64,000 nucleotides of DNA from Candidatus Woesearchaeota archaeon (GCA_018303445.1 JAGVYE010000003.1:2366-66365), one strand, 5' to 3'; shown: positions 1 through 20,145, counted from the stretch's first letter. Translations and numbers: made by a program. Notes: a model not told the origin generated them from the letters alone.

Positions 1-909
1 GCTAAACTTTGGATTAATGGAACGGATAATAATACTCATGTAAACATTTCCAGCATTAATATTGTCATGCAGGCTGAAGATGATTATCATGTGGGCATAG
101 GCCAAACTTTATCTAGAACCATTGCGGCGCAAAATGAGAATAAAGAGGTCCTCTTAACAACAACCTGGGATGTTCTGTTTAGAAGTTACAATCAACAAGC
201 AAATACGGCGACAATCCAAATAGGAAAACCATGTCCGCCTTTAACGTATAGCTGCACTGATTCTGATCAGGAACGTGATTATGCGGTGCGAGGACAAGTT
301 AGTGCTTTCGGCGTCACGTATCAAGATCGTTGCGTCGGGAATAATGTACTGGAAGGAGTTTGCGTTGGAAAGAGAGTTGGTTTTGAGTCGTATGCTTGTT
401 CAAATGGATGCGGCAATGGGGTTTGTGTAACGATGTCTGGATGCAGCTCTTCCAATAAAGCCGCTTGTAATGCCGCAAATTGCGCCACTCTCGGTCAAGG
501 TGTCTGGGATACAACAGAAGCCATACCCTTATGCAGGGAAGGACGATGTAAAGGGACAGTTTCACAACATGCAGAGTTATGTCCAGGAGATAGGCAAAGT
601 TTGACCGTCGATACTCCGAGAACTGTCGTCGAACGTTGTCGTGGATTTGGAAGTTGCCTATATGTTTGCAGTTCAGGATTTACGTTGCGCAATGGTGATT
701 GCGTCGCTAATGAAGCCTGCGCTGATGGAGAAGATAATGATGATGATGGGCAGATTGATTGCCTGGATGCTGATTGCGCGGGACTAGATGGACCGAGCGG
801 AACGTTATGTTGCCAGCAAACTGCAGATTGCAGAACGGGAGAAACCTGCCGCGGTTCACAATATACTATCACGGGATCTAATGTCACGATAACTCATTTA
901 CCACGATGA
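1..909 (+). CDS. Cys-rich secreted surface protein, 5'-partial (reading frame is open from base 1; ORF-track start at 67 is probably internal)
   Basis: No stop in frame from position 1. Very Cys-rich. Shares the C-N-x-x-N-C-x-T-L-G-Q-G-V-W module and the D-N-D-D-D-G-Q-I-D-C..CCQ..DCR module with the 13860..16331 paralog. Stop overlaps the next start (ATGA). Confidence 0.6.
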   Translation, partial: AKLWINGTDNNTHVNISSINIVMQAEDDYHVGIGQTLSRTIAAQNENKEVLLTTTWDVLFRSYNQQANTATIQIGKPCPPLTYSCTDSDQERDYAVRGQVSAFGVTYQDRCVGNNVLEGVCVGKRVGFESYACSNGCGNGVCVTMSGCSSSNKAACNAANCATLGQGVWDTTEAIPLCREGRCKGTVSQHAELCPGDRQSLTVDTPRTVVERCRGFGSCLYVCSSGFTLRNGDCVANEACADGEDNDDDGQIDCLDADCAGLDGPSGTLCCQQTADCRTGETCRGSQYTITGSNVTITHLPR

Positions 910-2138
910 TGAAAAAAACATTTTACATATTAGTACTGATGCTTTTAATGTCGGCGGTACTGGGCGAGCTTACCTTAACACTTGACAAAAGCCCGCCCCT
1001 TTATGATCGTGGCAGCAACAATAGGGTGGAAGTCAGCGTGAGCTGCGCGGTGGGAAACAGCAGTACCGTGCATATTCGCAATGCGGAAAATCCTTCGCGG
1101 TTAGTGTATATTGCCGTCGGAAATGGAACTTGGATAGTGAATTATAACACCTTCTCAGATTTAAGCGACGGGAGATATGTGCTTGAAGCTTTTTGCCAAG
1201 AAGGTTCAAATGCGACGGCAAACTTTTGCGTTAATGCAAATAATTGTTTGAATATACAAGGGCCGCCGGATCTTCCTCCCACGTGCAGCGATGGAATCAA
1301 GAATGGAAATGAAGGTTGCGATGATGGTGATACAAGCAATGGTGATGGCTGTTCTGCAACGTGTACAGTCGAATCGGGCTGGAGATGTACGGAAAATGCA
1401 GGCGGGCTTTCAACTTGTACTAGAGTAGGTGGCGGAAGAGGCGACGGAAGCGACGGTGGTGGAGACGGAGGCGGCGGTGATACTGGCAGAGATTCATCTT
1501 CTTCTGGATCTGGAAGCGGCCGCCGCAGGTGCACATCTTCCTGGAGTTGCGATGCCTGGGGATTATGCAATGCTACTTTAAAACAGTCGCGCACCTGCAC
1601 TGACGAAAATCAATGTGATCGAAAACCTCGAGTCGAGGCAAGATCTTGCACCAGCTGTCAAGAGTCGTGGGTATGTTCCCTGTGGAGCGAATGCCGTTCC
1701 GGTTCTCAGTATAGAACCTGTGATGATGAGTATAAATGCGGGACTTTTGTTCAAAGGCCGGAGACAGAGAAACGATGCGATGCGCCTACAGTAGGATTCA
1801 CTCCCCGCAAAATTTCAGAACCAGTGGCAGCGCCTCCTTCAACTTTTCCCCCTTTCGGACAAGAACCAGTCACACGACGGCCGCCAGCAGTTCCTCCAAG
1901 TTTCTTAAGCAAATATCAAAAATTTGCAGTTAGGGGCGGCATTGCTCTGGGAATATTAATTATTCTCGTCGTCATTATTGTTTTGTTTATCAAAAGGAAA
2001 GGTAAAGTAAATTCAGAACTCGCGGCTTGGATAGGACAGGCGCGTAGCGGAGGCAAATCCGATACGTATATTCGAAATGCGTTAGTGGATGAGGGATGGA
2101 CAGAAAAAGAGATTGAAAAGGCGTTGCGAAGGAATTAA
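906..2138 (+). CDS. Cys-rich surface protein: signal peptide, one Myxococcus-type CDDGN..DGCS repeat, Gly/Asp-rich linker, 2x W-x-C-x2-W-S-x-C 6-Cys module, Pro-rich stalk, C-terminal TM helix and conserved cytoplasmic tail
   Basis: N-terminal hydrophobic signal (MMKKTFYILVLMLLMSAVLG). Motif GCDDGDTSNGDGCSATC. Two copies of the SW.C..WS.C...Q.R.C.D...CG module. C-terminal hydrophobic stretch GIALGILIILVVIIVLFI, then tail ..SDTYIRNALVDEGWTEKEIEKAL. Confidence 0.75.
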   Translation: MMKKTFYILVLMLLMSAVLGELTLTLDKSPPLYDRGSNNRVEVSVSCAVGNSSTVHIRNAENPSRLVYIAVGNGTWIVNYNTFSDLSDGRYVLEAFCQEGSNATANFCVNANNCLNIQGPPDLPPTCSDGIKNGNEGCDDGDTSNGDGCSATCTVESGWRCTENAGGLSTCTRVGGGRGDGSDGGGDGGGGDTGRDSSSSGSGSGRRRCTSSWSCDAWGLCNATLKQSRTCTDENQCDRKPRVEARSCTSCQESWVCSLWSECRSGSQYRTCDDEYKCGTFVQRPETEKRCDAPTVGFTPRKISEPVAAPPSTFPPFGQEPVTRRPPAVPPSFLSKYQKFAVRGGIALGILIILVVIIVLFIKRKGKVNSELAAWIGQARSGGKSDTYIRNALVDEGWTEKEIEKALRRN

Positions 2139-2212
2139 TTTCTATCTTGCTGAAAAGAGTGCGTATTAAATCACCGCAAGATTTATATATTGTTGTATGA
2201 TTAATCATACAT

Positions 2213-3721: not shown

Positions 3722-3789
3722 CTTGTCAGCTTTATTTCATACTTCAAGTGGTCTCCGCAAGTGGTGCTCCAAACACTTTTCAATAACGC
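3722..3789 (+). repeat. 68-bp conserved intergenic element, copy A. 64/68 identical to copy B at 55765..55832. Ends 50 nt upstream of a + strand start codon
   Basis: cttgtcagctttatttcatacttcaagtggtctccgcaagtggtgctccaaacacttttcaataacgc. Contains a TTTATTT TATA-like box. A partial inverted partner lies at 3630-3667. Confidence 0.6.
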
Positions 3790-3838
3790 CCTAAATTTAG
3801 GAAAAATATATAAAGATTATTTTCTTGCTATCGTAGTG

Positions 3839-6724
3839 ATGTTTAAAAAAAGAGCGTGGATCATGGCGATTGTTTTAATTTTATTAAATTCAACTTTCTT
3901 GCTGGCTGATCATCAGTTAACAATTGGCTCTGTCGGCTGTCCAATTGGCGCTTCCAATCATTGCGTGGAAAATGCTTATTGTCCTTCTTCCGATTTTTAT
4001 GATGGCACAACTCGAATTGCCAGGCAAACGGTATGCACCGAAAAATTGATTAATTACCGACGTTGTAATGCAGATGAGCCTGCTGATCGGAGAGATCAAC
4101 AGTGCTTAGGAATTCTTAGAAATCCTAATCTTCCATTCTCAGCAACAACCAATCCTGTTGATCTGCAAAGCAGATGCCTGCCGGCGGAAACTGATCAGCG
4201 AGGAAATAACCCTCAATTAATTGCAGGACAATATTATTGCCTTCCTATCTATCGCGGACCTACACTTTTTCCTAGTTATGATGGCCAGCAGTGTTACAAC
4301 CAAGAACAATGTTCTAATGGCATTTGCGATCGCAAGGCTGATTTTGAAGATAAAAAAATTTGCCAGCGGGCCTTGATTTCGTCAGCCAACCATTTGGGAG
4401 GGGTCGCTCCTGACGTAACCATTCGCGGCGCCTGTTTTTTTGACCGCCAATGTTTTGGCTACGATCCTCAGAGTAATGCTGATGCCTGCGCTGGAGAAGA
4501 TCGCGCTGTCGTGCCTTACAGTCCGGGAGTTTGCCGTTTGCGGCAAGGACAACCCCAAATCGGGTTTACCATTCGTTCTGACCTTTGGGGAAATATTGAC
4601 GGGACGCCAGCAGCAGCTGATGCTACTAGAATTAGTGTTTATCGGGGAGAAACAATTGAATTAAACTGGAATGTTATGGCGGATACCGTCAACAGCGGTC
4701 CAGTTTCCTGCACGGGAATTAGCAATCCTCCAGGCCTCTGGACGTATTCTCTGCAAAACTGGGAGGACCGTTCCTTTGCGCCCTATCCTTTGCTATGGAG
4801 ACCAGAAACTCCTATTTCTCAGAGAATAGGGCCAATTACTCAGGATACGTCGTTTACCTTTTCTTGCACTAATAGGGAAAGTAGCACTCCCATTTCCAAG
4901 ACCGTACAGGTTACTTTGCGTCCAGTTTCTCCTCCCGCTTGCTCTGGGAATGAAAATAACTGTCTTTTAGCTCATTTGGATTTTGAACGGCCAGAAATAA
5001 ATGGTGAATCAGCTGGGAGACAAATATTTCCCGGCGGTCCTGAAAGCTCTTGCCGTTTTCCTCAAGTTTGCACGAGAAACAGGCTGGGAGAATATTTGCC
5101 CGGCAGATTGCAAGGAAATCCAACTCTAATACCTTCAATAGATTCAAACCAACCTGGACCTAGATTCTACCAATTGGATGGTGTTGATGATGTTGTTTCT
5201 CTTCCTTTAGATATCCGCGACCCGGTTTTTTCTAATGGAGTTACCGTTTCATTTTGGGTTAAGCCGGGAAGTAATAGAAATGAGGACTTATTGGTTTGGG
5301 CTGATTCTGTAGGCGGAAGAATTTTGAATATCCTTTTAAATCCTTCTTCAGGTGGCCAAATTATGACTGTGAGTGCAGGCGGTTTAGGCGGTATAATATT
5401 ATCCCCGTTTTATGGTTCACGATGGAATCAGGTTGTTTTCTCCATCCAGCCGCAGTCAAATCAGCAAACTCTAACTTATCGTGTTTATATCAATGGTCAT
5501 TTAAAGTTTGAAGGGACCCAATCAAATATTCTTTTTCAAACCGGAAAAATGCTTTTGTTTGGTGGGGTTCGTGATTTTTTAAATATCCCACCTTTCACTG
5601 GCAGCATAGATGAAATAAAAATATTTCGTGAAGCGCTGCCAATGAGGCAAATAGCTAATTTATATCGTACAGATGCACTTCAAAATCATAATTACTGGAG
5701 AGGATGTTTGGGAAAAGTGCCAAGTTCCCAGCTTTGTACTATCGAAGTTAATGGTGCAAACTTAGATGATCGTATTGTTACCAATTTGCTAGACAACCAA
5801 GGCCAGTGTCCAGCTACAGTTGGAAGTCGTAATCTTTGCCATGCTTACTGCCTGCCAGGTTATGTCGTCCAGCCAGGCAATAGTATCGGAGAATCCCGCT
5901 GTGTTCCGGAAGGGCAGCAGGATTTGGCTCCTCCAACAATTACCAGTCAACAAGCAACGGATATAACCTCTACTTCTGCTACCTTGCGAGTAATTACCAA
6001 TGAACCAGCAACTTGCAGATATGATCGTATTGATGGCGGTTCTTATAATTCGCTGATCAATCCATTTGCCACGACAGGAGGCACGAGCCATTCTTCTGTT
6101 ATTAACGGTTTAGAACCGCAGGGATACATTTATTTTTTTAATTGCCGGGATAATTTTGGCAATGTGCGCGCCCAAAATTATCAAATCTCATTTGTAATCC
6201 CAGTTGAAACCACTCCGATGCTCTATTATTGTTCCAGCGACCGTAATGAGCCTAATCAGGCCAACAATCCTCCTGCCGGAGGCGTAGGTTTGAGATATTC
6301 GGGATATAATACTCAAATTAGGGGCACTTCGAACATGGTTGATGGTATCTCCCAAACAGACGTTTGCGAATCAGCAACAGCCTTGCGTGAATTTTATTGC
6401 TGGTCAGCGAATGGACGATATATTAACCCAGATAGCGCCGCTGCTGGTTTATTACGATCGGAAGTAGTTAACTGCAATTGTCTTGAGGGCGCCTGCGTCA
6501 GCGCTCCGCCTCCAGCCGCGGCTTGCGGCGATATTGACGCCAATGGCATAATAAATATTGCTGATATTAACCGCCTGATTGCTCATGTAGTGAATCGACA
6601 ACCGCTTACTGCCGATGAACGGCTTAGGGCTAATGTTGACGGGGCTGGAGAGATTACTTTTGGAGATATTTTCCGGTTAATTGATAAGGTGATTAATCCA
6701 TTAACATCTTTGGTCTGCTCATAA
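3839..6724 (+). CDS. Large secreted protein: N-terminal signal/TM, Cys-rich region, LamG/ConA-like lectin domain, C-terminal dockerin (two Ca-binding repeats)
   Basis: Start set at MFKKRAWIMAIVLILL (the ORF-track start at 3761 lies inside the conserved 68-bp element). LamG-like stretch: VTVSFWVKPGS...WNQVVFS...YINGHL...GSIDEIKIF. Dockerin: GDIDANGIINIADINRLIAHV + ANVDGAGEITFGDIFRLIDKV. Confidence 0.75.
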   Translation: MFKKRAWIMAIVLILLNSTFLLADHQLTIGSVGCPIGASNHCVENAYCPSSDFYDGTTRIARQTVCTEKLINYRRCNADEPADRRDQQCLGILRNPNLPFSATTNPVDLQSRCLPAETDQRGNNPQLIAGQYYCLPIYRGPTLFPSYDGQQCYNQEQCSNGICDRKADFEDKKICQRALISSANHLGGVAPDVTIRGACFFDRQCFGYDPQSNADACAGEDRAVVPYSPGVCRLRQGQPQIGFTIRSDLWGNIDGTPAAADATRISVYRGETIELNWNVMADTVNSGPVSCTGISNPPGLWTYSLQNWEDRSFAPYPLLWRPETPISQRIGPITQDTSFTFSCTNRESSTPISKTVQVTLRPVSPPACSGNENNCLLAHLDFERPEINGESAGRQIFPGGPESSCRFPQVCTRNRLGEYLPGRLQGNPTLIPSIDSNQPGPRFYQLDGVDDVVSLPLDIRDPVFSNGVTVSFWVKPGSNRNEDLLVWADSVGGRILNILLNPSSGGQIMTVSAGGLGGIILSPFYGSRWNQVVFSIQPQSNQQTLTYRVYINGHLKFEGTQSNILFQTGKMLLFGGVRDFLNIPPFTGSIDEIKIFREALPMRQIANLYRTDALQNHNYWRGCLGKVPSSQLCTIEVNGANLDDRIVTNLLDNQGQCPATVGSRNLCHAYCLPGYVVQPGNSIGESRCVPEGQQDLAPPTITSQQATDITSTSATLRVITNEPATCRYDRIDGGSYNSLINPFATTGGTSHSSVINGLEPQGYIYFFNCRDNFGNVRAQNYQISFVIPVETTPMLYYCSSDRNEPNQANNPPAGGVGLRYSGYNTQIRGTSNMVDGISQTDVCESATALREFYCWSANGRYINPDSAAAGLLRSEVVNCNCLEGACVSAPPPAAACGDIDANGIINIADINRLIAHVVNRQPLTADERLRANVDGAGEITFGDIFRLIDKVINPLTSLVCS

Positions 6725-7132: not shown

Positions 7133-8572
7133 ATGAAGTTAAATGAGGTTAGTGCAAGTAAGAGTAAACTATCTCGCTCTGTTATTTCTGGCTCTCAGAT
7201 TTCTTCTTTCAAGAAAACAGGGCTGATAGTAATGATAGCAGTTGTGATTTTAGCCATAGGGTTCTCGTTTCTGTTTCCAGCTTCTAAGAAGGGACTGGCA
7301 GGGCGGGCATTCGGGGAAACTGTTGGTGGACCATCAATACCACTCACAAGTTGTGGTCTAATCACTGCGCCAGGAGTCTATACTCTTAACACTGTTCTTT
7401 CTGTCGCTGATTCCGCGTTATCAAATAATGCCTGCGTGACAATTACAGTTGATAACGTCGGCATTCGCTGCACTGCTGGAGGAGGATTTACGTTCACAGG
7501 AAGCAATCCGCTAGCAAAAGGAGTGCGTATCATGAATGTGAATGGTGTGGAAGGTGTTAAGGTGACAGGATGTCAGTTTCTTAGTTTTCCACAGCGCAGC
7601 ATAGAAGTTGAAGGCAGCAGCGGCATTGTTCTTAATGATAATGTCATTATACAATCGGGAAGTATGGGGCAGGGTATTTCTCTTTCAGCTTCACAACGTT
7701 TGTTAGTTGATAAAAATAAAATTTCTGCTCCTATAGGTCTGGCGATGGATAGTACCACGGAAAGTGTTGTCAGCAGGAACATTATTCGCGCGGCACAGAC
7801 AGGAATCTCCGTTGGGCAAGGAAGCAGCATGAATTCTTTTTTTGAGAACACTGTTTCTGGCAGGCAAGCAGGAATAACCGTTGCGGCAACGGATAAAAAT
7901 GATTTTTATCTTAATGTTATCTCCGGAAGCCCGGTAGGGATATCTTTTAGCGGCTCGACAAATACTGGTTTCGGCCAGAATACTTTATGCGGGAATTTTC
8001 AAAATGGGGTGGCCTGCACAAGTACTCCTCCAACTACCTTTAGCGGCGGCAGTGGTAATTTTCTGACGGGAAATAGTTGTTCTAGTTTAGTAGGGGCTTC
8101 TTTTAGTGATTGTCCCAATCCTGCGGTTACTCTTTGCGGCAATAGTTGGGTTGATAATGGCGAACAATGTGATGATGGAAATACTGTCGGAAATGACGGC
8201 TGTTCAAGCACGTGTCAGAATGAACAACCTTCCTTCTCTTGCGCCACTCCTGCCCCAAATAATTCTGATCCTTGCGCTAATCGCGCTAATCCAACTACTG
8301 CCAACACTCCCAATGTTCTGTTTGCTACTTGCCCAACAACTAATGTTCCTGCTTGCAGTTATAGTTGCCGAAGTAATTTTCGATTAAATGCAGGAGTGTG
8401 TGAAGCTGTTCCCGCAGGTTTACCGGCTTGCCATGTACTTAAACAGAGGTGTGATACAAATGAAAAAATTATTATTGATGTTGGCATTATTGCTCCTTCC
8501 TTTTGCTTTAGCAGATATTTCCATAACTTGTTCTCCATCCTCAGTTCAACCAGGCGAAGCTGTGAATTGTAA
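7133..8572 (+). CDS. Membrane-anchored surface protein with a right-handed parallel beta-helix (PbH1-type repeats) and one Myxococcus-type Cys-rich repeat
   Basis: N-terminal TM (LIVMIAVVILAIGFSFLF). Repeating G-x-x-V/I-x-x-N-x-I/V units (NVIIQSG.., NIIRAAQTGISV.., NVISGSPVGISF..). CDDGNTVGNDGCSSTCQ motif. The 3' end overlaps the next gene by ~110 nt in another frame. Confidence 0.65.
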   Translation: MKLNEVSASKSKLSRSVISGSQISSFKKTGLIVMIAVVILAIGFSFLFPASKKGLAGRAFGETVGGPSIPLTSCGLITAPGVYTLNTVLSVADSALSNNACVTITVDNVGIRCTAGGGFTFTGSNPLAKGVRIMNVNGVEGVKVTGCQFLSFPQRSIEVEGSSGIVLNDNVIIQSGSMGQGISLSASQRLLVDKNKISAPIGLAMDSTTESVVSRNIIRAAQTGISVGQGSSMNSFFENTVSGRQAGITVAATDKNDFYLNVISGSPVGISFSGSTNTGFGQNTLCGNFQNGVACTSTPPTTFSGGSGNFLTGNSCSSLVGASFSDCPNPAVTLCGNSWVDNGEQCDDGNTVGNDGCSSTCQNEQPSFSCATPAPNNSDPCANRANPTTANTPNVLFATCPTTNVPACSYSCRSNFRLNAGVCEAVPAGLPACHVLKQRCDTNEKIIIDVGIIAPSFCFSRYFHNLFSILSSTRRSCEL

Positions 8573-9947
8573 CGCAGCTACTACGACTACGTTAAATAAT
8601 GTTGGCAGGTTAAGCTTTACAGTTAATCCCGGAACCTTATTTGAGATTACTAGCACATCTGGCCTTGCAGGAGTGACTTTTAATCCCGCTAATGGCATTG
8701 GAACCTATACCAATGCTCAAGGCATTAATTTTAATGCTAATGCGGTATTATTTACAATTAATTTACGCGCTAAAACTGGAGTTCAAGGCAGCGAATCGAT
8801 TTCATTTAGCCGATTTATCGTAAGAGATCTTACTCCCGCAGATATTAACTTTGGCACTGTAAGAAATTCGAATATGATCACTGTTGGTTCTGCTGACCGT
8901 GCTTGTTCAGAAGCAGATTGGTGTGGTCCATGGGGCACTTGTCCTGCTGGAACTCAAACTAGAACTTGTAACACGCCTGCAGGTGCAGCTTGTACTAGCG
9001 GTGTGACTGCTGAACCAGCAGAAACGCAATCTTGCACTCCAAGTTGCGCTGGAGTTGCGGATGGCGCAGCTTGTACTTTAAGCGGCGCTGCCGGCACTTG
9101 TCAAAGTGGTGGTTGTCAGACAGTACCTGGAACTTGTACTGCTCGCGCCACAACTTGTAATGTAGCTGGTGTTGATTGTCCTAATGGTCCAACTGGAACT
9201 CCTGTTCGTGTTAACCGAATAATTTGCCCTAGCGAAACTCCTTGTAATCCGACAACTGGATTATGTCAAGCAGTTGCATGTACTGCTCGCGCCACAACTT
9301 GTATTCAGGCAGGTGTTAGTTGCCCCTCTGGTTCATCTGGTGCTGCTGTTACAGTAGCTCAAGTAGTTTGCAGTGATGCAACTCCTGTTTGTAATACTAT
9401 AACTGGTTTATGTGAAGCCGCTCCTGCCTGTATTGACGCAGATAATGATAGGTATTACCCTGGAGAGTTTAGTACTCAATGCTTTATAACTGGCCAACCT
9501 TTGGGTTTTGGAGATTGCAATGATAATAATCCTCTCATTCATCCTAGCGATAATGAATTGATTTGTAATGATGGATTAGATAATGATTGCAATGGTTTCA
9601 CTGATTGCGCAGATGTCTTGGCTTGCGTTCGTTTAGCTTGTGTAACCGGCGGAGTTGCCGGAACTTGCCAAAATAATGGTATTTGTCAACCGCCTGCTGG
9701 TCGTGGAGCAACAAGTTGCACTGAAGGTCAATCCATAACTGGAACACCGTCTTGTAATTGTGATGCAAAAGTTATTTCCGGAGCAACTTATCAGCGTCAT
9801 GAAATTGGCGGACAATGCACCCTTCTGCTGGGCAAAATTAAAGCCGAATTTGAATCATCGCGTAATGCTTTGCAAAAAATGGTGAATATGGCGCGGTTGC
9901 TGCGTTGTTACATTTCCAGTACCAGAGCAACTTGCATGGAACAATAA
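8460..9947 (+). CDS. Secreted Cys-rich protein: signal peptide, N-terminal Ig-like (possibly cohesin-like) domain, W-C-W module, 2x A-T-C-x-x-A-G-V-x-C-P...V-C-S..T-P-x-C-N-x-x-T-G-L-C-E repeats, conserved GQCTLLL..IK C-terminus
   Basis: Start moved to MKKLLLMLALLLLPFALA (signal peptide). Paralogous in its N- and C-terminal segments to 12269..13822. Confidence 0.65.
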   Translation: MKKLLLMLALLLLPFALADISITCSPSSVQPGEAVNCNAATTTTLNNVGRLSFTVNPGTLFEITSTSGLAGVTFNPANGIGTYTNAQGINFNANAVLFTINLRAKTGVQGSESISFSRFIVRDLTPADINFGTVRNSNMITVGSADRACSEADWCGPWGTCPAGTQTRTCNTPAGAACTSGVTAEPAETQSCTPSCAGVADGAACTLSGAAGTCQSGGCQTVPGTCTARATTCNVAGVDCPNGPTGTPVRVNRIICPSETPCNPTTGLCQAVACTARATTCIQAGVSCPSGSSGAAVTVAQVVCSDATPVCNTITGLCEAAPACIDADNDRYYPGEFSTQCFITGQPLGFGDCNDNNPLIHPSDNELICNDGLDNDCNGFTDCADVLACVRLACVTGGVAGTCQNNGICQPPAGRGATSCTEGQSITGTPSCNCDAKVISGATYQRHEIGGQCTLLLGKIKAEFESSRNALQKMVNMARLLRCYISSTRATCMEQ

Positions 9948-9951
9948 GATC

Positions 9952-12240
9952 ATGAAAACTACTGCTGAAGATAATCTGGACCATTCTAAAATAAAGAATG
10001 AAAAGAAAGGGCAGGCAAATCAGAAATTAGTAGTAATCAGTATCTTTGCAGTAGTATTATTAGGAGCGCTGATAGTGTTATATTTCTTTACGGACACTTT
10101 TGTGGGAAGAGCGTTTCAAACTGGAATTAGGAATTCTGCCGGATTGGATTTCAGCGGCGGAATAGAAAATCTGCCTTTAAATGACGAGGGAACTTATCCT
10201 CTTAAAGCTAATGTTGATCAAGCCGTGAGAATCAATGCGATTAATTTTGTGATGAAGTATGATTCTGCCAAGTTATCAGTTAATAATTGCCAGCAGCGAG
10301 TTCAGCAAACTTTAGATAGTTATTTTAATTATAATCTCATTAATGATTTATCCTTAATACGAGAAGTTTCCTGTGATCCAGCAGGAAAAATAACGGTTAA
10401 TTATGTTTTTGCCTGTGATCCAACCAACAATTGCAATAATTTACCGGCTCCTGCTGCCTCCGGAGATATTTTCTTGGCAATATTTCTTTTTACTGGCATT
10501 GCGGCAGGAACTGCGGACGTTTATTTTGAATCATTAGACATTTATGATGTTAATTCACTGCCTGGAACTACGGCAGTTTCATTAAATTCTCCGACGAGAA
10601 CTAGCCCGGATAGAATTACTGTACGTCAGACTACGGAAACTGTTGATCAATCACTAGCTTGCACTAGTTCTAATGACTGTTCGACAGGACAAACATGCAG
10701 CGGCGGTATTTGTATTTCACCCCGTTGCGGCAATGGCGTACTTGAAGTAATAGAACAGTGCGATGATGGAAATACTGCTGGAGATGACGGCTGTTCTTCA
10801 ACCTGTCAAATTTATGAAGCAGGATGGCTATGTAATACACCCGGTCAGCTCTGCCAAAAATTATGCGGCAATGGGGTTGTTGAAGTTGCAGCTAGTGAAT
10901 GGTGTGATGATGGAAATAATGCCAATGGCGATGGCTGCACTCGTACTTGTCAAATGGAGAACGGATATGTTTGTCCAAGAAGAGGCGGAGTATGTATTTT
11001 AAGTACACAGGCTTGCGGCGACGGAGTAGTGCAAGTTGGTGAATATTGCGATGATGGAAATGCCGCTTCAAGTGATGGCTGCGCAGCTTGTCAAATTGAA
11101 AATGGATATACTTGCAGTGGCAGCCCTTCTGCTTGTGTTCGTATGGGGGAGACCACTTATATAAATTTTTGTGGCGATGGAATAATCCAAGACAATGGCG
11201 GGAATGGAATTGCCGGAGATATCGATGATGAACAATGTGATGACGGCAATCGAAATGATAATGATGCTTGCACTAATATTTGCCGCACTGCCTTTTGCGG
11301 TGATGGAGTTGTCAGAGCTGGAACAGAACAATGCGATGACGGCAATCGAAATGATAATGACGCTTGCACTAATATTTGCCGCACTGCCTTTTGCGGCGAT
11401 GGAGTTGTCAGAGCTGGAACAGAACAATGTGATGACGGCAATATGGTAAATACTGATGGCTGCACCACTCAATGTCGTACAAATGTTTGCGGTGATGGAA
11501 TTGTTTGGATAAGAACAGAATATTGCGATGATGGCAATCTAGTGAATGACGATGGTTGTTCAAGTACCTGTCAAATTGAGTTAATAGGCCGCTGCGGTGA
11601 TGGAACAGTTAACCCTAATGAACAATGTGACGATGGGAATCAAAATGATAATGACGCTTGCACTAATATTTGTCGCACTGCCTTTTGCGGCGATGGAGTT
11701 GTCAGAGCTGGAACAGAACAATGTGATGACAGCAATCCTGCAAATTATGATGATTGTACCAATGAATGTCGTATTGCCGTTTGCGGTGATGGAATTACCA
11801 GAGCTGGAACAGAACAATGTGATGATAGGAATACTATTACTGAAATATGTGCTTATGGTCAACGATCGTGTACTGTCTGTAATAATCAATGTCAATCTGT
11901 TGCTGGCGCAGCGACGTATTGTGGTGACGGAATTATACAAACGGGTGAACAGTGCGATGATGGAAATGCAGTTCTTGGTGATGGATGTTCAGCAACGTGC
12001 AGCGTAGAATCTAGTGGTGCTGGGTTATTGGGCGATGTAAATGGCGATGAGGTTGTAGATTTAGCTGATGCTATTGATGTTGCCAGATTTGATTTAGGTA
12101 TTTCGACTAGTCTAACATTCAATGCAGCGCGGGGAGATGTGACCTGTAATAATGGAGCAGTAGACATTGCTGATGCTATACTTATTGCCAGGGTTGATTT
12201 AGGAATTCCTGGATTTAATATCCCTAATTCCTGTTCATGA
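9952..12240 (+). CDS. Scaffoldin-like surface protein: N-terminal TM anchor, Ig/cohesin-like domain, ~14 Myxococcus-type Cys-rich repeats (C-x-DGN-x6-C-x3-C), C-terminal dockerin
   Basis: TM: VVISIFAVVLLGALIVLYFF. Repeats: CDDGNxxxxDxC(T/S)xxC..CGDG. C-terminal dockerin: GDVNGDEVVDLADAIDVARFDLG + GDVTCNNGAVDIADAILIARVDLG. Confidence 0.75.
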   Translation: MKTTAEDNLDHSKIKNEKKGQANQKLVVISIFAVVLLGALIVLYFFTDTFVGRAFQTGIRNSAGLDFSGGIENLPLNDEGTYPLKANVDQAVRINAINFVMKYDSAKLSVNNCQQRVQQTLDSYFNYNLINDLSLIREVSCDPAGKITVNYVFACDPTNNCNNLPAPAASGDIFLAIFLFTGIAAGTADVYFESLDIYDVNSLPGTTAVSLNSPTRTSPDRITVRQTTETVDQSLACTSSNDCSTGQTCSGGICISPRCGNGVLEVIEQCDDGNTAGDDGCSSTCQIYEAGWLCNTPGQLCQKLCGNGVVEVAASEWCDDGNNANGDGCTRTCQMENGYVCPRRGGVCILSTQACGDGVVQVGEYCDDGNAASSDGCAACQIENGYTCSGSPSACVRMGETTYINFCGDGIIQDNGGNGIAGDIDDEQCDDGNRNDNDACTNICRTAFCGDGVVRAGTEQCDDGNRNDNDACTNICRTAFCGDGVVRAGTEQCDDGNMVNTDGCTTQCRTNVCGDGIVWIRTEYCDDGNLVNDDGCSSTCQIELIGRCGDGTVNPNEQCDDGNQNDNDACTNICRTAFCGDGVVRAGTEQCDDSNPANYDDCTNECRIAVCGDGITRAGTEQCDDRNTITEICAYGQRSCTVCNNQCQSVAGAATYCGDGIIQTGEQCDDGNAVLGDGCSATCSVESSGAGLLGDVNGDEVVDLADAIDVARFDLGISTSLTFNAARGDVTCNNGAVDIADAILIARVDLGIPGFNIPNSCS
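11233..11814 (+). repeat. Tandem 96-bp (32-codon) repeats inside 9952..12240. Three copies are almost identical at DNA level (11233-11328, 11329-11424, 11623-11718) and others are diverged
   Basis: Repeat unit caatgtgatgacggcaatcgaaatgataatga(t/c)gcttgcactaatatttgccgcactgccttttgcgg(t/c)gatggagttgtcagagctggaacagaa. Confidence 0.85.
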
Positions 12241-12268: not shown

Positions 12269-13822
12269 ATGGTGCAAAGAAAATTTAAATCTTGGATGAT
12301 CATTGGTTTATTCATTTTAATGCTTCCCATAGCGGCCGCGGTTAATTTTAATGTAAATTGTCCTGCTTCATCTCTTTCTGGTCAAAGTTTTACCTGTCAA
12401 GTAAATATGCCGACGCCTCTGGCATCAGGTCTTTCATCATTGAGTTTTACTGCTAATGCTGGCGGAGCAACTATTGCCGTAACTTTTCCCCAAGGCACCA
12501 CGGTCAGCAGTGGCGGCACGTATGGTTTTTTTACTCCTACGCCAGTAACTAATTCTAATCCTTTAGCCTCCGTGCAAATAACTCCTATTACTGGCCAAAC
12601 CTCTGTAACATTACAATTGACTGGTGTGCGAGGACGATTGGGAGATAATACTTTACTTCTTCCTGCAAATCCAGCGCCAAATAATATTGCATTTAATAGT
12701 CCAACAGTAACTATTGGCTCTACTTGTACGTCAACAGGAAATGCAGAAACTAGTTGTAATGGAATAGATGATGATTGTGATGGCAGTGTTGATGAAAATT
12801 TCGTTGGAACGTCTACCACTTGCGGAGTAGGAGTCTGCGTTGCAACTGGATTGACAACCTGTCCGAGAGCTTCAGGTCAAACAACTGTAGGCAATAGCTG
12901 TACTCCTAGAACTCCAATAGCTGAAGTTTGCACTGACAGTTTAGATAATGATTGCGATGGAACGGTTAATGAGGGTTGTACTGTTTGTGTTCCTCGTGAT
13001 CCCACTGCCTGCACAACTGGTGTTGAATGTCCAAGCGGGAATAGTCTTCCAGCTTTAGGCTGTTCTAATGGTCAAAGTTGTCAGGGAAGTCCGGCTAGTT
13101 GTCAACCAACAGCAGCAGGAAATAATCTGCCGGTAGCAGAAGATGATACTTTTACCGTTGTTTTAGGAGCTGGTGCTGGCAGTCTAGAAACTACTTTTAA
13201 TGTTTTAACTAATGATCGAGATCCAGATAATGATGCTTTACGTATTACCAGCACCACTCAACCGGCTAATGGTTTAGTTTCTTTGCCATCAAACCGAAGA
13301 ATTTCTTATCGCAGCAACGCTGGATTTACAGGGACAGATTCATTTACTTACACTATCAGCGATGGCCGCGGCGGAACAGCTACGGCTACGGTAACGGTGA
13401 CAGTGAGTTCTTCTTTAACTTGCACTTTTCGCGCCGCAACTTGCAGTCAAGCAGGTGTTAATTGTCCTGATGGCTCTGGCGGCGAACCTGTTAGTATTGA
13501 CCGGGTAGTTTGCAGCGGTGTAACTCCTTTTTGTAATACTAAAACTGGCTTATGTGAAACTGGCTGTGCGGAAGGAACCTTGTTAGCAGATCCACCTGTG
13601 TGTACTTGTGTTGCTCCTTTGCAGAATGTTGATGGTGTTTGTAAATGTCCTCCTTCAGCAGGAAGGGCTCAGCATCTGGTGAGAGGGCAATGCACACTTT
13701 TACTTACAGAAATTAAAGATTCTTTAGAAAACGATCAGCAATATAGCGGAATAATGCAGAAAGTTTCCCGTATCGCTGAAGCGTTGAAGAATTTCCTGAG
13801 GGCAGTTCATTTAATTAATTAA
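12269..13822 (+). CDS. Secreted Cys-rich protein, paralog of 8460..9947: signal peptide, Ig/cohesin-like N-domain, Cys-rich region, C-terminal conserved GQCTLLLTEIK helix
   Basis: Signal: WMIIGLFILMLPIAAA. N-terminus NVNCPASSLSGQSFTCQVN parallels SITCSPSSVQPGEAVNC in the paralog. Shares the CTFRAATCSQAGVNCPDG...VVCSGVTPFCNTKTGLCE module. Confidence 0.65.
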   Translation: MVQRKFKSWMIIGLFILMLPIAAAVNFNVNCPASSLSGQSFTCQVNMPTPLASGLSSLSFTANAGGATIAVTFPQGTTVSSGGTYGFFTPTPVTNSNPLASVQITPITGQTSVTLQLTGVRGRLGDNTLLLPANPAPNNIAFNSPTVTIGSTCTSTGNAETSCNGIDDDCDGSVDENFVGTSTTCGVGVCVATGLTTCPRASGQTTVGNSCTPRTPIAEVCTDSLDNDCDGTVNEGCTVCVPRDPTACTTGVECPSGNSLPALGCSNGQSCQGSPASCQPTAAGNNLPVAEDDTFTVVLGAGAGSLETTFNVLTNDRDPDNDALRITSTTQPANGLVSLPSNRRISYRSNAGFTGTDSFTYTISDGRGGTATATVTVTVSSSLTCTFRAATCSQAGVNCPDGSGGEPVSIDRVVCSGVTPFCNTKTGLCETGCAEGTLLADPPVCTCVAPLQNVDGVCKCPPSAGRAQHLVRGQCTLLLTEIKDSLENDQQYSGIMQKVSRIAEALKNFLRAVHLIN

Positions 13823-13859: not shown

Positions 13860-16331
13860 ATGAAAGTGAAGAGAATAAAAAAAGGCAAGCATAGTGTTTT
13901 ACGGTACAAGTCATTGCCTCCTCACACCAATGAAGCAGTTCCTGTTACACATCTGGGAGAAGTAAGCAAACCTTTTATTATTGTTGCCATTACTATTGCT
14001 GCTATTGTTTTGTTAGCGGTATTCTTAATGTTTAAAGATCAGATTGTTGGAAAAGCGTTTTTTGTGGCTGGTGTAGTAGATACAGCAGGCATCGCAAATC
14101 CTGGTTCAGTTTTGGAGAATACGCCTTTTTCTTTGCTGGTTAGAGCTAACATTGGAACGAAAGAAACAACAGGCATAGAATTTGAATTTCCTTTGCCTAC
14201 AGGATTACGTTGCCGAGTGGCAAATCCAATTGAGAATTTGTTGGGATGGAATGCCCAAAATGGGGCGCTGCTAGAGGAAGCAACGTGCGTGAATAACGTG
14301 GTGCATTTCCGTTATCTTACCGTGAATGGGCAAGAAGCGAAGAGAGGAGAGTTTGATATTGCACGAATTCATGTTGAAGGCGCAGCGGCAGGAACATACA
14401 CTTCAACTTTCCGTCTTTTTAATATTATTAATCTTGCTACTCCTCAAGGCGATATCATTAGCAATGGGTTGGTTGATCCTCTCGTTGTACGACAAGTGGG
14501 ATTCTGTCAGGATAATAGCCAATGCCAGCAAGGAGTATGTAATACGCAAACGAATCGATGTGCGCAATGTGTTGCTGATGCGCAATGCAGTGGAACTACG
14601 CCGATTTGTAATACCCAAACTAACCTGTGTGAAGCTCGTGCGCCTGCCTGTGGCAATCAGCAAATTGATGTAACAGAACAATGCGATGATGGTAATACTG
14701 CAAATGGAGATGGTTGTTCAAGCACTTGTCAAAGAGAAGCACCTCCAGAAATAACTTATCGCGTCAATTGTCCTCAAGATAATATTTCTATAGGTCAAAC
14801 AACAACGTGTGAAATTATTTTAAATCAGGCCGTAACGGAAACATACGGAGAACAATTTACGATTTCCGCTCCTGGATTTACGGCAGCAACTCCATTTATT
14901 GAAGGTGTTACAGGTATTACTGCATCTTCGGCAGGAATTGGAGGAACAACCCTTCTCGTTGAAAGTGATCACTTAACGAGCCGAGGTCAAGCGGCAGGTG
15001 TCGTGGCTCGGTTTACACTTCGCGCGGGAAATGCGGGAGGAATATACACAGTCTCTTTGAGCAACTTAGTCTTGGGAAGTTCTGCTACTTCTGATATGAT
15101 AACAATTTTAGCAGCGGAAAGAGAATGCAGCGCAACTAATAAAGCAGCATGCCAAGATCGAACATCATGCGAAGCTACACTTGTCGGCGGATATTGGTAT
15201 AATAATCAATGCAATACCCAACCGGAATGCCGCGTCAATAATTTAGCTGGCTGTCGAACACAAGCACAGTGTGAAGCGACAGCTATTGGCGGCCGATGGA
15301 ATGCGGCAACAAGCACCTGCAGTGCAGCGCCAACATGCAGCCCAACTAATCTGGCTGTGTGCACACAAACAAACTGTGTTACTGTTGGTCAAGGAGTTTG
15401 GAATACAACGGCAAGCAGCTGTGATACAGCAGTTGAAATTTGTAATGATGGACAAGATAATGATCAAGATACTCAAGTAGATTGCGTCGATACGGAATGC
15501 AGAGGAAGAGCCGGTGCCAATGGCGCTCTCTGTTGCCAAGCAGTAGCTGATTGTCGAGAAGGACAAGAGTGTCAAGCAAATCAGTGTAGAACGGTAACAA
15601 TCCAAACAACAACAACTTCTTCGTCTGGCGGAGGCGGTGGCGGAGGAGGCGGAGGCGGTGGTTGCGTTTCCAATTGGCAATGTGATCTTTGGAGTTACTG
15701 TAACTCTACTTTGCAGAAATCGCGAACTTGCATAGATTTGCGAAAATGTATCCAAAAGCCAAAATTAGAAGTTCAATCCTGTCCTGCTTGTGAAGAATCA
15801 TGGTTGTGTACGTCGTGGAGTCAATGTTTTGGCAGTACAAAAACGAGAACGTGTACTGATGAGCATAAATGTGGAACGTTGCGGCTAAAACCATCAGAGC
15901 AGCAGCAATGCACACTTCCAAGTTCGCAATTGCCTGTGCAACAGGTACAGCAGCCTCAACAGTTTTATGTGCCTCCCCCTTCAGTTCCATATCAAGCTCC
16001 ACAAGTACAAAAGCCAAGCGTCTTTAGGCAATATCAAACGTGGTTTATCAGTGGGGCTTCTCTCTTACTTTTAGTTATAATCTTAGGCCTGGTCTGGCGT
16101 TTAACTCATCGTCCTCAGCAACTGGGTTATAATATCGGTGAATTGAAAGAATGGATTAAACAAGAACAAGCAATGGGAACTTCAAACGAAGACATTAAAG
16201 AAATCCTCTCTGATAAAACGGGATGGACAAAAGAAGAAATTGAAAAGGCCTTTGAAAGTTTAGGAAGCGCGCTCACAGAAGAACAACTTCAATCTTCAGA
16301 AGAACAAATCATGGAAATAGGGGGGAAATAA
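13860..16331 (+). CDS. Giant membrane-anchored surface protein: N-terminal signal anchor, Ig-like domain, Myxococcus-type Cys-rich repeats, poly-Gly linker, 2x W-C-W 6-Cys module, Gln/Pro-rich stalk, C-terminal TM and conserved cytoplasmic tail
   Basis: TM1: FIIVAITIAAIVLLAVFLMF. Motif CDDGNTANGDGCSSTCQ. Linker SSSGGGGGGGGGGGG. Modules CVSNWQCDLWSYC.. and CEESWLCTSWSQC... TM2: ISGASLLLLVIILGLVW. Tail: NEDIKEILSDKTGWTKEEIEKAFESLG. Confidence 0.75.
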   Translation: MKVKRIKKGKHSVLRYKSLPPHTNEAVPVTHLGEVSKPFIIVAITIAAIVLLAVFLMFKDQIVGKAFFVAGVVDTAGIANPGSVLENTPFSLLVRANIGTKETTGIEFEFPLPTGLRCRVANPIENLLGWNAQNGALLEEATCVNNVVHFRYLTVNGQEAKRGEFDIARIHVEGAAAGTYTSTFRLFNIINLATPQGDIISNGLVDPLVVRQVGFCQDNSQCQQGVCNTQTNRCAQCVADAQCSGTTPICNTQTNLCEARAPACGNQQIDVTEQCDDGNTANGDGCSSTCQREAPPEITYRVNCPQDNISIGQTTTCEIILNQAVTETYGEQFTISAPGFTAATPFIEGVTGITASSAGIGGTTLLVESDHLTSRGQAAGVVARFTLRAGNAGGIYTVSLSNLVLGSSATSDMITILAAERECSATNKAACQDRTSCEATLVGGYWYNNQCNTQPECRVNNLAGCRTQAQCEATAIGGRWNAATSTCSAAPTCSPTNLAVCTQTNCVTVGQGVWNTTASSCDTAVEICNDGQDNDQDTQVDCVDTECRGRAGANGALCCQAVADCREGQECQANQCRTVTIQTTTTSSSGGGGGGGGGGGGCVSNWQCDLWSYCNSTLQKSRTCIDLRKCIQKPKLEVQSCPACEESWLCTSWSQCFGSTKTRTCTDEHKCGTLRLKPSEQQQCTLPSSQLPVQQVQQPQQFYVPPPSVPYQAPQVQKPSVFRQYQTWFISGASLLLLVIILGLVWRLTHRPQQLGYNIGELKEWIKQEQAMGTSNEDIKEILSDKTGWTKEEIEKAFESLGSALTEEQLQSSEEQIMEIGGK

Positions 16332-17649: not shown

Positions 17650-17789
17650 AGGATATTTTTCTTCTCAAAAATTCTTTTATCACAATCTTTATAAAGAACG
17701 ATCTAAAAATAATCTTAAACTGCTGAGATACCTCGCGAGAGGGAGAGCTGATAAGTTCTTTGGTCTCGGAATCAAAGGTGATGTAAAGA

Positions 17790-18383: not shown

Positions 18384-18431
18384 GGCAAAAGTAATATAAA
18401 GAATACCTCTCTTCCTTCTGGAAGAAAAGAG

Positions 18432-20009
18432 ATGAGAAATGTCAATAAAGAAAAAGTATTGGTAGCTCTAGCTATTATTATTCTTATCGCAGCTTTTCTA
18501 CTAACTTACATCCCTAAAGGGCCGTTGTTTGGCAAGGCCGTAAGTACAGGAATGACGCATGCCATCTCCATCCAAAATTTTGCTTTCTCACAACTGGAAG
18601 TTACTATTAATGTTGGGGACACAGTCACGTGGACAAATAATGACCAAGCTACACATATGGTAGTTTCGAGAGGAAGCGGACCTTTAGATTCTGGTACGAT
18701 GGTAAACGGGCAAAGTTATAGTTATACTTTTGTTGCTTCTGGCACCTATGAATTCTTTTGTTCCCTTCATCCATTTATTATGATCCCTGGAAGGGTTATA
18801 GTTATTAATGCCACCCCTGCCATTCCGCCGACTCCGCCTTCGCCTCCGCTAGACTCGCTGCCTCCCCAACCTTCGCCACCCCCTCCTCCGCCAGCGGCAA
18901 CGCCGCCTGTGATAGAGATGCCTTCATTAAACATAACTCTTGTCACTCCTTCTCACTCAGGTGCAGTTCAGAATGGAACAGTGAATTTCACGTACCTTTT
19001 TCAGGGAATAACTCCCAGCCAATGTATGTTATATGGAAATTTTAGCGGCACGTGGCAGCCAGGTCTTGCTCAAACAGTAGCTGTTAATGGGAGTTATACA
19101 TTTACTTCTAATCTTTTGAATGGAAGTTACCTTTGGAATGTTCTCTGCAGCAGCAGTTCAACGCAAGGGCTGGTAAGTAAATGGGGAAGCAGGAATTACA
19201 CTTTAACTGTGGCTGTACCAGCAAGTTCTCTTTCCGTCCCTAATATTTCTCAACAAAATCAAATCATGGTTGCTCTTCTTACTCCTGCTGATCGTGCCGC
19301 GTTGCAAAATGAAAGCGTTTCTTTCTCTTTTTCTTTTACAGGACCAACTCAAGGAAGTTGTCAGCTTTATGGCGATTTTAATGGCAGTTGGAGTATGAAT
19401 ACCAGCCTGGCTTCTCTTAATAATGGAACCTCTCGTCTCACTTTTAATGTTGGTAATGGACGTTATCTCTGGAACGTACATTGTGTTGATAGTGCTAATC
19501 TTTCTAATGAAGATTGGAGTGATTATAACTGGAGTGTTAGTGTTTCCCAATTGTCTGTGAATGTCTCGAGTCAAACAAATGCCACAAATATAACTTCTTG
19601 TTTAGAAGCCTGGAGTTGTACAGGGTGGTCTTTATGTGAATTTGGCAGGCAAACACGAATATGCACTGACCAAAATAATTGTGGAACCTTTTTACAAAGA
19701 CCGCCTCAGACCCAAGTTTGTGTTCAGCAGCAGGCAGCAGCAACAACAACTTCTCCAGCAAGTGGAAGTAATTTTCCTTCTACGAACACTGCAGCACAAC
19801 CAACACGGGCTCCTCCTTCCTTTCCTGCTCCTTCTCTTTCAGATACTGAAAAGAAACCTTTGGTGCAGCAGCCAAAAGAAACAACACAGAAAAAAAGTAC
19901 TCTTCTCTTCCTTATCCTTGGCACAACTGTTGCTTTGGTGGGTTTCATCCTCTACCGTAGGCACGTTGAAGTCATATGTGGCAAAAGACAGGATGAGAGG
20001 AGTCAATGA
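18432..20009 (+). CDS. Membrane-anchored surface protein with N-terminal type-1 copper cupredoxin domain, Pro-rich linker, 2x Ig-like N-glycosylated repeats, W-C-W module, C-terminal TM. Apparent +1 frameshift before the conserved cytoplasmic tail, which continues in frame +1 to 20082
   Basis: Cupredoxin ligands: H in ATHMVV, then C..H..M in FFCSLHPFIM. PPTPPSPPLDSLPPQPSPPPPPP linker. Repeated NGSYLWNVLC / NGRYLWNVHC. CLEAWSCTGWSLC module. TM LLFLILGTTVALVGFILY. Tail homolog (VNDTAIRQNLAQAGWNKNDIDEAMKK) is encoded in the other frame (ORF 19636..20082). Confidence 0.7.
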   Translation: MRNVNKEKVLVALAIIILIAAFLLTYIPKGPLFGKAVSTGMTHAISIQNFAFSQLEVTINVGDTVTWTNNDQATHMVVSRGSGPLDSGTMVNGQSYSYTFVASGTYEFFCSLHPFIMIPGRVIVINATPAIPPTPPSPPLDSLPPQPSPPPPPPAATPPVIEMPSLNITLVTPSHSGAVQNGTVNFTYLFQGITPSQCMLYGNFSGTWQPGLAQTVAVNGSYTFTSNLLNGSYLWNVLCSSSSTQGLVSKWGSRNYTLTVAVPASSLSVPNISQQNQIMVALLTPADRAALQNESVSFSFSFTGPTQGSCQLYGDFNGSWSMNTSLASLNNGTSRLTFNVGNGRYLWNVHCVDSANLSNEDWSDYNWSVSVSQLSVNVSSQTNATNITSCLEAWSCTGWSLCEFGRQTRICTDQNNCGTFLQRPPQTQVCVQQQAAATTTSPASGSNFPSTNTAAQPTRAPPSFPAPSLSDTEKKPLVQQPKETTQKKSTLLFLILGTTVALVGFILYRRHVEVICGKRQDERSQ

Positions 20010-20145
20010 TACTGCCATTCGCCAAAATTTGGCACAGGCAGGATGGAATAAGAATGATATTGATGAAGCGATGAAAAAATAGATTTAAGTTTTCTTGTTG
20101 TAGGTGACGTTACTTTATCAGTATCAAAAAAAGCTCTATAGAAAA

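Follow-up and report, generated by a model that had tools for sequence, protein, structure and literature searches.

Cohesin and dockerin modules on archaeal cell surfaces have been described for the anaerobic methanotrophic archaea ANME-1 and ANME-2, in which some surface proteins combine a dockerin with cohesins (PMC9012536). Dockerins also occur in ultra-small symbionts: Omnitrophota encode giant open reading frames (ORFs) with dockerin and LamG domains, for which a role in cell-cell adhesion has been proposed (PMC10066038), and a dockerin-domain protein of Saccharibacteria is essential (PMC10633639). For Woesearchaeota or other DPANN archaea, the literature that we searched holds no description of a cohesin-dockerin system. 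Here, we analyze a stretch of 64,000 nucleotides from Candidatus Woesearchaeota archaeon (GCA_018303445.1 JAGVYE010000003.1:2366-66365), hereafter the window, whose bases 1-20082 encode surface proteins that NCBI names 'DUF4215', 'cadherin-like' or 'hypothetical', the system itself being unannotated. We propose, with a probability of roughly 0.62, that this locus is a non-cellulosomal cohesin-dockerin surface-assembly cluster, which would build a multi-protein adhesive complex on the membrane of the Woesearchaeota cell. Cohesin-dockerin modules in an archaeon are in themselves unsurprising and the modules are already known; new are two divergent cohesin families, the membrane anchor, a conserved Woesearchaeal gene arrangement and population mosaicism. 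Every cohesin, dockerin and anchor module (the W-C-W Cys module, WCW, and the conserved tail) of the window falls within this locus, whose surface-protein genes are built as follows (TM, transmembrane):

g1, 1..909, + strand: C-terminal 302 codons of a 919-aa Cys-rich protein with an acidic double-disulfide repeat; frame open from base 1, truncated by the window edge.
g2, 906..2138, + strand: membrane anchor with signal peptide, one TIGR02232 repeat, G-rich stalk, two WCW modules (1530-1778), P-rich linker, TM helix and conserved cytoplasmic tail (1998-2135).
g5, 3761..6724, + strand: Cys-rich N-region, Laminin_G_3 (LamG, ~5186-5656), beta-rich region, class 1 dockerin (6521-6721).
g6, 7133..8572, + strand: signal-anchor with 'LAGRAF', NosD/CASH-type right-handed beta-helix, one TIGR02232 repeat, frame-shifted tail; dockerin deleted in the window.
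g7, 8460..9947 (ORF also from 8388), + strand: signal peptide, type B cohesin (8511-8891), one WCW-like module, 'CTARATTC' Cys repeats, MopE-type motif, C-terminal amphipathic helix (9807-9920).
g8, 9952..12240, + strand: signal-anchor with 'VGRAF', type A cohesin (10135-10623), 11 TIGR02232/DUF4215 repeats (~10720-12010, 96-nt tandem period), class 2 dockerin (12025-12234).
g9, 12269..13822, + strand: signal peptide, type B cohesin (12338-12700), MopE-type Cys motifs, Big_9/cadherin-like domain (~13121-13402), C-terminal amphipathic helix (13682-13807).
g10, 13860..16331, + strand: leader (LPPHTNEAVP), TM, 'VGKAF', type A cohesin (14082-14495), TIGR02232 repeat, type B cohesin (14751-15113), Cys-rich region, poly-G stalk, two WCW modules (15663-15911), TM anchor, conserved cytoplasmic tail (16116-16259).
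g13, 18432..20082 (ORFs 18432-20009 plus 19636-20082), + strand: signal-anchor with 'LFGKAV', cupredoxin (~18561-18803), poly-P linker, two N-x-S/T-rich beta domains, one WCW module (19599-19721), TM, conserved tail in another frame (19960-20079).

An earlier note on this DNA had described Ig-like N-terminal domains and put them forward as candidate cohesins, and structure prediction bears this out: the domains fall into two strongly diverged cohesin families (types A and B), both modeled as a nine-stranded flattened beta-sandwich of jelly-roll topology that lies nearest to solved cohesins. Absence of the cohesin fold from every locus protein, which the note would have counted against its idea, was not observed. 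The window holds five such modules (type B in g7 and g9, type A in g8, one of each in g10); g10, which joins both types to a TM anchor, corresponds to the cohesin-bearing anchors suspected earlier. A sixth module, of type A, belongs to the part of g1 that lies outside the window: the full-length copy on the sibling contig L025 (we number contigs and loci with L and proteins of related loci with P) begins with a signal-anchor and an 'LAGKAF' motif, followed by the cohesin at residues 55-186 (type A profile, E = 2.4e-6). For type B, the g7 domain, modeled from a 24-sequence type B alignment, reaches a predicted local distance difference test score (pLDDT) of 92.4, and the five best PDB matches of the type B profile are all cohesins from R. 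flavefaciens and C. perfringens (E = 0.0025 to 0.15), the best of them (E = 0.0025) spanning nearly the whole length. Pfam Cohesin PF00963 gives weak matches in 2 of the 24 type B members (E at least 0.097). For type A the model has a pLDDT of 70.6 and its top 16 structural matches are all cohesins. By sequence alone these domains were hardly detectable. An exhaustive HMMER search found 55 type B relatives among 1.84 billion representatives, while a genome scan with a type B sub-family alignment gave no confirmed relative; the g8 N-domain alone as query returned no homologue, and the whole-g10 search was dominated by myxobacterial DUF4215 proteins, leaving 8 informative matches.

Bona fide dockerins had been noted in two genes; they are the C-termini of g5 and g8, and at family level they are genuine. 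As single sequences both score just below the Pfam Dockerin_1 gathering score of 22.9 bits (20.5 bits for g5 and 16.9 bits), and in the PDB both come closest to the C. thermocellum Xyn10B dockerin as solved in the cohesin complexes 1ohz/2ccl (E = 0.003-0.006; top chains for g5, 2ccl_B/1ohz_B). Aligned with ten relatives from related loci, they yield a 12-member clade profile that matches ~38 solved dockerins with E values down to 1.9e-15, and 11 of the 12 members match PF00404 (best E = 2.7e-13). The aligned dockerins share a tandemly duplicated segment of ~22 residues, made up of an EF-hand-like Ca2+ loop (D-x-N/D-x-D/N-G-x-I/V-x-x-x-D) and its helix: it reads DIDANGIINIAD ... NVDGAGEITFGD in g5 and, with a one-residue insertion, DVNGDEVVDLAD ... 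DVTCNNGAVDIAD in g8, and it is also present in g6', the g6 version of sibling strains, which adds a third dockerin to the two of the window; the HMMER alignment to 2ccl_B agrees. Two classes can be told apart: class 1 (g5) ends in '...INP....VC', class 2 (g8) reads 'LLGDVN.D..VD...' and then '...ADAILIARV..GIPGF.I...CS'. A Cys conserved near the start or the second loop, together with one at the C-terminus, suggests a disulfide clasp, and these dockerins would bind cohesins in a Ca2+-dependent manner. Cohesins and dockerins co-occur not only in the window but also in the loci L003, L015, L021 and L022 and in the single proteins P0159, P0161 and P0174.

Attachment to the membrane is provided by a module set of its own. 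The W-C-W Cys module proposed in the earlier note was recovered in g2, g10 and g13 and is conserved across loci, with the consensus C-x3-W-x-C-x2-WS-x-C...R-T-C-x-D...C and 15 invariant columns in 18 sequences from 17 loci. All three genes end with one or two of these modules, a TM helix and a ~45-aa tail ('...G.S.E.I...L...GW...EIE.A'); the claim of a shared C-terminal anchor stands for all three, except that in g13 a 1-nt shift near 19950-19965, just after the TM helix, puts the tail into a different frame from the remainder of the gene. The shift may reflect an error in sequencing, recent pseudogene formation or recoding. The WCW module has neither a Pfam nor a PDB sequence match; its likeness to the thrombospondin type 1 repeat (W-x-x-W...C...R-x-C) is one of motif only, and we do not claim that identity. 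Likewise, the tail gave weak, below-threshold matches to UBA_2, RuvA_C and MerR-type models, has no convincing PDB sequence match and is assigned to no family, and an LPXTG match in g13 is weak, lies on the TM segment and stays below the cut-off. At the other end, the N-termini of g1, g6, g8, g10 and g13 consist of a basic region, a TM segment and a '[VL][GA]G[KR]AF' motif that may be a signal-peptidase site. Ahead of type A cohesins this region takes the form of a conserved cytoplasmic leader, 'K.LPPHT.EAHP....SKPFII', followed by a TM segment and 'VGKAF', in ~20 species (g10 13860-14060; P0001-P0027; L004-L023). Such conservation of the n-region is not typical of signal peptides, and the leader may mark a dedicated export or sorting route.

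Synteny and copy number across related genomes had been suggested as a check, and here ~20 other species turn out to carry the same modules in loci that are syntenic or similar. The locus L003, from another genome, lies beside the same OB-fold, S6e and nitroreductase genes and encodes the orthologs of g5 (LamG with a class 1 dockerin) and g6 (NosD beta-helix with a class 2 dockerin), one protein each with a type A and a type B cohesin, and two WCW-TM-tail proteins. A scan of GTDB species representatives with the type A leader yielded 20 loci, labeled Nanoarchaeota or Woesearchaeota, with some TPA bins labeled Methanosarcinales. In all 16 of these loci with downstream sequence (16 other species, within L005-L022), a protein with two WCW modules, TM helix and tail comes next to the type A cohesin protein on its downstream side or is fused with it, a Rosetta-stone-type link to which the g1-g2 pair (1-2138) and the g10 fusion (13860-16331) of the window correspond. 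Dockerins and type B cohesins turn up repeatedly in these loci as well, and a dockerin gene, a type B gene and a type A gene follow one another in this order in the window, L003, L021 and L022. Moreover, cohesins and dockerins share single polypeptides in particular combinations: type B with a class 1 dockerin in P0159 and P0174, type B with a third dockerin class in P0161, and type A with a class 2 dockerin in g8 and L015.

Strains vary as well. Sibling contigs from independent ENA and JGI assemblies are 99.8% identical to the window and differ from it in structure. In six of them (L025, L026, L027, L029, L001, L002) g6 has 499 aa and an intact class 2 dockerin; relative to these, the window has lost ~190 nt of the dockerin (junction ~8422/8423, between short GGTTTA repeats), and the resulting frameshift lets g6 read to 8572 over the start of g7. 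In L001, L002 and L025, g7 (to ~9118) is joined to g9 (from ~13099) in a 458-aa fusion (P0123) and g8 is absent; P0121 and P0124-P0126 are mosaics of g7, g9 and g0, a paralog located upstream of g1, with swapped C-terminal helices. Further variants of the g7/g9 region are the 735-aa proteins P0211 and P0213, and one g8 variant is short of part of the repeat array (724 aa versus 762 aa). The window's own versions of g8 and g9 are also found on several independent contigs, so both haplotypes are probably real, the one combining a dockerin-less g6 with separate g7, g8 and g9, the other a dockerin-bearing g6 with the g7/g9 fusion; a collapse of the assembly across repeats is a further possibility.

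Concerning the remaining modules, HMM searches of the locus proteins recovered all those that had been named, i.e. Myxococcus-type Cys repeats, LamG, beta-helix and cupredoxin. TIGR02232/DUF4215 scores lie above the curated cut-off of 20.8 bits in g2 (47.9), g6 (41.5), g10 (44.7) and, with 11 copies, g8 (311.6; E = 3.4e-95). Laminin_G_3 in g5, whose true start is probably the ATG at 3839 (MFKKRAWIMAIV...), scores 56.3 bits, NosD and Beta_helix in g6 score 66 and 63 bits, and g9 carries the Big_9/cadherin-like domain. In g13, PF00127 Copper-bind reaches 36.6 bits against a cut-off of 21.2 and the type 1 copper ligand motif H...C-x2-H-x4-M is intact (...QATHMVV...FFCSLHPFIM...); an amicyanin match was seen, and the cut-offs of the amicyanin and plastocyanin equivalog models were not reached. 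This protein has 18 N-x-S/T sequons and neither a cohesin nor a dockerin among its mapped modules, and it belongs to the system solely via the shared anchor. Of the lectin and redox heads suggested for the assembly, the LamG head of g5 carries a dockerin, and the cupredoxin has the membrane anchor alone in common with the system. The C-terminal amphipathic helix of g7 and g9, conserved as 'G.C(T/S)LLL..IK.......', also occurs in g0 (L025 183-608), and helices of the same type end many type B cohesin proteins (P0127, P0132, P0133, P0135, P0144, P0164, P0172, P0176); it could be an oligomerization or attachment element. Another conserved C-terminal domain of ~100 aa ('VQGTKITLTD...VIVYDVEQNP.VFGQL') is found in the g8/g10 relatives P0002, P0011, P0015, P0020 and P0027 and was not seen in the proteins of the window.

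Based on these modules, the following mode of assembly can be envisaged. The C-terminal TM helix of g10 would fix this protein in the membrane and let it display a type A and a type B cohesin on a disulfide-rich poly-Gly stalk; in the g1-g2 pair, the helix of g2 would serve as anchor and g1 would present its type A cohesin. Into these sockets the secreted dockerin proteins would plug in a Ca2+-dependent manner, namely g5 with its lectin-like LamG head and, in strains that keep its dockerin, g6 with its CASH beta-helix. The protein g8, whose cohesin and dockerin sit at opposite ends with 11 Cys-repeat spacers between them, would be an adaptor through which the assembly grows longer or branches, while g7 and g9 would be secreted cohesin proteins that offer extra sockets and self-associate or attach via their C-terminal amphipathic helix. 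As to specificity, proteins, including scaffoldins, rarely bear a dockerin for their own cohesin. Since type A is found together with class 2 (g8, L015) and type B together with class 1 (P0159, P0174), a tentative rule pairs the class 1 dockerin (g5) with type A cohesins and the class 2 dockerins (g8, g6') with type B. The LamG, beta-helix and cadherin-like heads would then bind glycans or proteins on a host cell or substrate, and recombination among paralogs would change the displayed set between strains.

A bolder version, which we regard as doubtful, sees more in the locus than another non-cellulosomal set, namely a lineage-specific surface-assembly machine of Woesearchaeota/Nanoarchaeota. 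Three unusual features speak for it. First, the conserved core could signal contact across the membrane: it links the leader-bearing (LPPHTxEAHP-TM-VGKAF) type A cohesin, by coupling or by fusion, with a new W/Cys ectodomain, a TM helix and a cytoplasmic tail that is UBA-like. Second, proteins with both a cohesin and a dockerin (g8, L015) could form head-to-tail polymers or daisy chains, i.e. extensible tethers towards the host. Third, paralog recombination at population level (g7/g9 fusions, loss of g8, gain and loss of the g6 dockerin, swapped tails) could resemble antigenic or host-range variation.

Several points weigh against a cohesin-dockerin assembly. The type A model is of moderate confidence only; neither the small paralog profiles A1 and A2 nor the 8-sequence type A profile A4 find a cohesin among PDB sequences, their top matches (DNA primase, Cry toxin, peroxidase) being judged chance, and Pfam Cohesin PF00963 matches g8 weakly, with E = 0.046. 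A profile-profile comparison of type A with type B detects no relationship, and we therefore treat them as two families of one fold, not as proven homologs. In the window itself g6 is without its dockerin and g13 is frame-shifted, so parts of the locus may be decaying or mis-assembled. If the N-terminal TM segments were left uncleaved, g8 and g6 would themselves be membrane-bound. Finally, the pairing rule is a tentative heuristic derived only from the avoidance of own-cohesin dockerins.

Among the alternatives, the one that survives best is a scaffold that builds or decorates the archaeon's own envelope, S-layer-like or organizing a glycocalyx, with no host recognition. CASH/NosD beta-helices, LamG and Cys-rich repeats are frequent in archaeal envelope proteins, the locus is chromosomal, beside housekeeping genes and syntenic in L003, and the anchor pair, retained in 16 of 16 loci, points to a core function of the cell. 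Yet the gain and loss among strains (g8 absent, g6 dockerin deleted, g7 and g9 fused) would sooner be expected of a variable interaction surface than of an essential wall, and the divergence between species is very high, as the 55 type B matches among 1.84 billion representatives illustrate; we consider an own-envelope role unlikely. A cellulosome-like extracellular complex that degrades or scavenges polymers, with the beta-helix of g6 as a polysaccharide lyase or hydrolase and the LamG of g5 as a carbohydrate-binding module, is a good deal harder to sustain. It can point to the Beta_helix/NosD and Laminin_G_3 matches as such, to an arabinanase as the best PDB match of the g5 LamG domain (C-terminal domain of the extracellular enzyme, 5hon, E = 3e-5) and to the resemblance of dockerin subunits plus the multi-cohesin protein g10 to a minimal cellulosome. 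However, Pfam and NCBIfam reveal no catalytic family of glycoside hydrolases, polysaccharide lyases or carbohydrate esterases in any locus protein, there is no signal for a CBM3 (family 3 carbohydrate-binding module), an S-layer homology (SLH) domain or a sortase, and lectin- or adhesin-like domains and Cys-rich spacers make up the payloads; a cellulosome proper is rejected for lack of catalytic subunits. Least probable of all are independent adhesins without specific pairing, in which Ig-like spacers mimic cohesins and Ca2+-binding EF-hand stabilizers mimic dockerins: the sub-threshold Pfam scores (Dockerin_1 20.5/16.9 versus 22.9 bits, Cohesin E = 0.046) and the many non-cellulosomal dockerins without known partner (PMC9012536, citing Peer et al. 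2009) speak for them, the strong family-level dockerin match and the repeated presence of both module types in the same loci and proteins across species against them.

The cohesin-dockerin cluster is embedded in its surroundings as follows. The housekeeping proteins of the window are identical to MBS3116078-MBS3116128, entries of a Candidatus Woesearchaeota archaeon metagenome-assembled genome on a 68,127-bp contig, and identify the source as a DPANN archaeon, tiny and probably symbiotic, in line with the small-genome archaeon assumed in the earlier note. The window also carries an archaeal rRNA operon (61335-64000; 16S, spacer tRNA and the beginning of 23S). Of the ten consecutive + strand surface genes listed there the positions are correct, but two are a nucleotidyltransferase/HEPN pair; the second cluster said to split the locus was found where expected:

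Nucleotidyltransferase/HEPN pair, 2213-3275, between g2 and g5: NTP_transf_2/Polbeta plus HEPN.
Interrupting block, 16560-18212: putative lipoprotein, OB-fold gene (- strand), ribosomal protein S6e.

The pair is of the type seen in MNT-HEPN toxin-antitoxin modules and is also present in sibling contigs. None was called at the matching position of L003, and we leave the pair out of the system as a generic insertion of toxin-antitoxin type. That the locus is a prophage or mobile island we reject in view of its synteny with L003 beside the S6e and nitroreductase genes. The putative lipoprotein just after g10 (16560-16997) is small, with a lipobox-like 'LTGC' and one canonical EF-hand-like loop (DTNDDKIITRQE), and has no Pfam match. 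Elsewhere in the window lie two FtsZ paralogs (23050-24117 and 56626-57786) and a protein that NCBI names a SERCA-type Ca2+-translocating P-type ATPase (53091-55760); to tie the latter to Ca2+-dependent dockerins would be pure speculation.

That the surface proteins are paralogs which re-use modules is confirmed by BLASTP similarities well above chance (g10 versus g2, E = 2.8e-47; g1 versus g10, 1.3e-21; g7 versus g9, 3.7e-17; g10 versus g8, 4.8e-16; g13 versus g2, 1.8e-13). At the DNA level, a 96-nt tandem repeat lies inside g8, scattered copies of the Cys repeat are common to g2, g6, g8 and g10, and a second repeat is common to g7 and g9. The proteins are indeed Cys-rich, with 4-8.6% Cys in all except g13 (2.3%), compared with 0.6-1.7% in four housekeeping proteins of the window. 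Their genes mostly have a G+C content of 0.42-0.47, compared with 0.35-0.41 in most of the remaining window, and G+C falls to 0.36 in the 2-kb bins that hold the toxin-antitoxin pair and the S6e block; the raised values are probably compositional, reflecting codons for Cys, Gly, Ala and Thr. With regard to expression, the ATGA overlap at 906, where the start of g2 overlies the stop of g1, is real, and together with the gaps of 5-38 nt from g6 to g10 it suggests co-transcription. Shine-Dalgarno boxes of the form AGGTG(A)/GGAGGT, complementary to the 16S 3' end (GGATCACCTCCT), precede g7, g9, g11 and g12, but not every gene.

DPANN archaea presumably live in attachment to other cells, and we know of no contact-making molecules described for Woesearchaeota. 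The locus provides a hypothesis that can be tested in vitro, as its six candidate cohesins and three candidate dockerins are small, expressible modules. Current domain models miss both cohesin families, and cohesin-dockerin systems may consequently be under-counted in ultra-small archaea. The link between type A cohesins and WCW-TM-tail proteins and the strain mosaics offer handles on how episymbionts vary their contact surface; moreover, divergent, disulfide-rich cohesin-dockerin pairs could act as orthogonal protein connectors.

Compared with known systems, the locus shares single traits with each and coincides with none. Its TIGR02232/DUF4215 repeats are bona fide members of a family common to hundreds of myxobacterial proteins (g8: 11 copies, 311 bits), but here they are spacers in cohesin-dockerin proteins, of which the myxobacterial matches listed include none. 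The bacterial cellulosome (C. thermocellum CipA/OlpB/SdbA; R. flavefaciens Sca) offers counterparts for the anchoring scaffold (g10), the adaptor (g8) and the dockerin subunits (g5, g6'); the dockerins align to Xyn10B and Cel dockerins, and the cohesins best match R. flavefaciens type III and C. thermocellum type I/II. In contrast to it, the locus has no catalytic glycoside hydrolase subunits, CBM3, SLH or sortase anchoring and at most two cohesins per protein (g10), its dockerins are flanked by conserved Cys that may form a disulfide clasp, and its anchor is an archaeal membrane anchor. Closer are the archaeal non-cellulosomal systems (A. fulgidus cohesin 2xdh; ANME, PMC9012536), likewise extracellular, without glycoside hydrolases and variable in content among close relatives, those of ANME also joining a dockerin with cohesins in one protein. 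From these the locus differs in cohesins that stay below the Pfam threshold and form two clade-specific families, in payloads (LamG, beta-helix and Cys-rich repeats instead of ABC substrate-binding proteins), in its anchorage by a novel WCW module with TM helix and cytoplasmic tail, and in its origin from a DPANN archaeon with a small genome. With the ultra-small symbionts (PMC10066038, PMC10633639) it has in common LamG/dockerin surface proteins of reduced-genome epibionts with a proposed role in cell-cell adhesion; unlike them, it belongs to an archaeon, is spread over ~10 mid-sized genes instead of one giant ORF, and carries its cohesins in the same locus.

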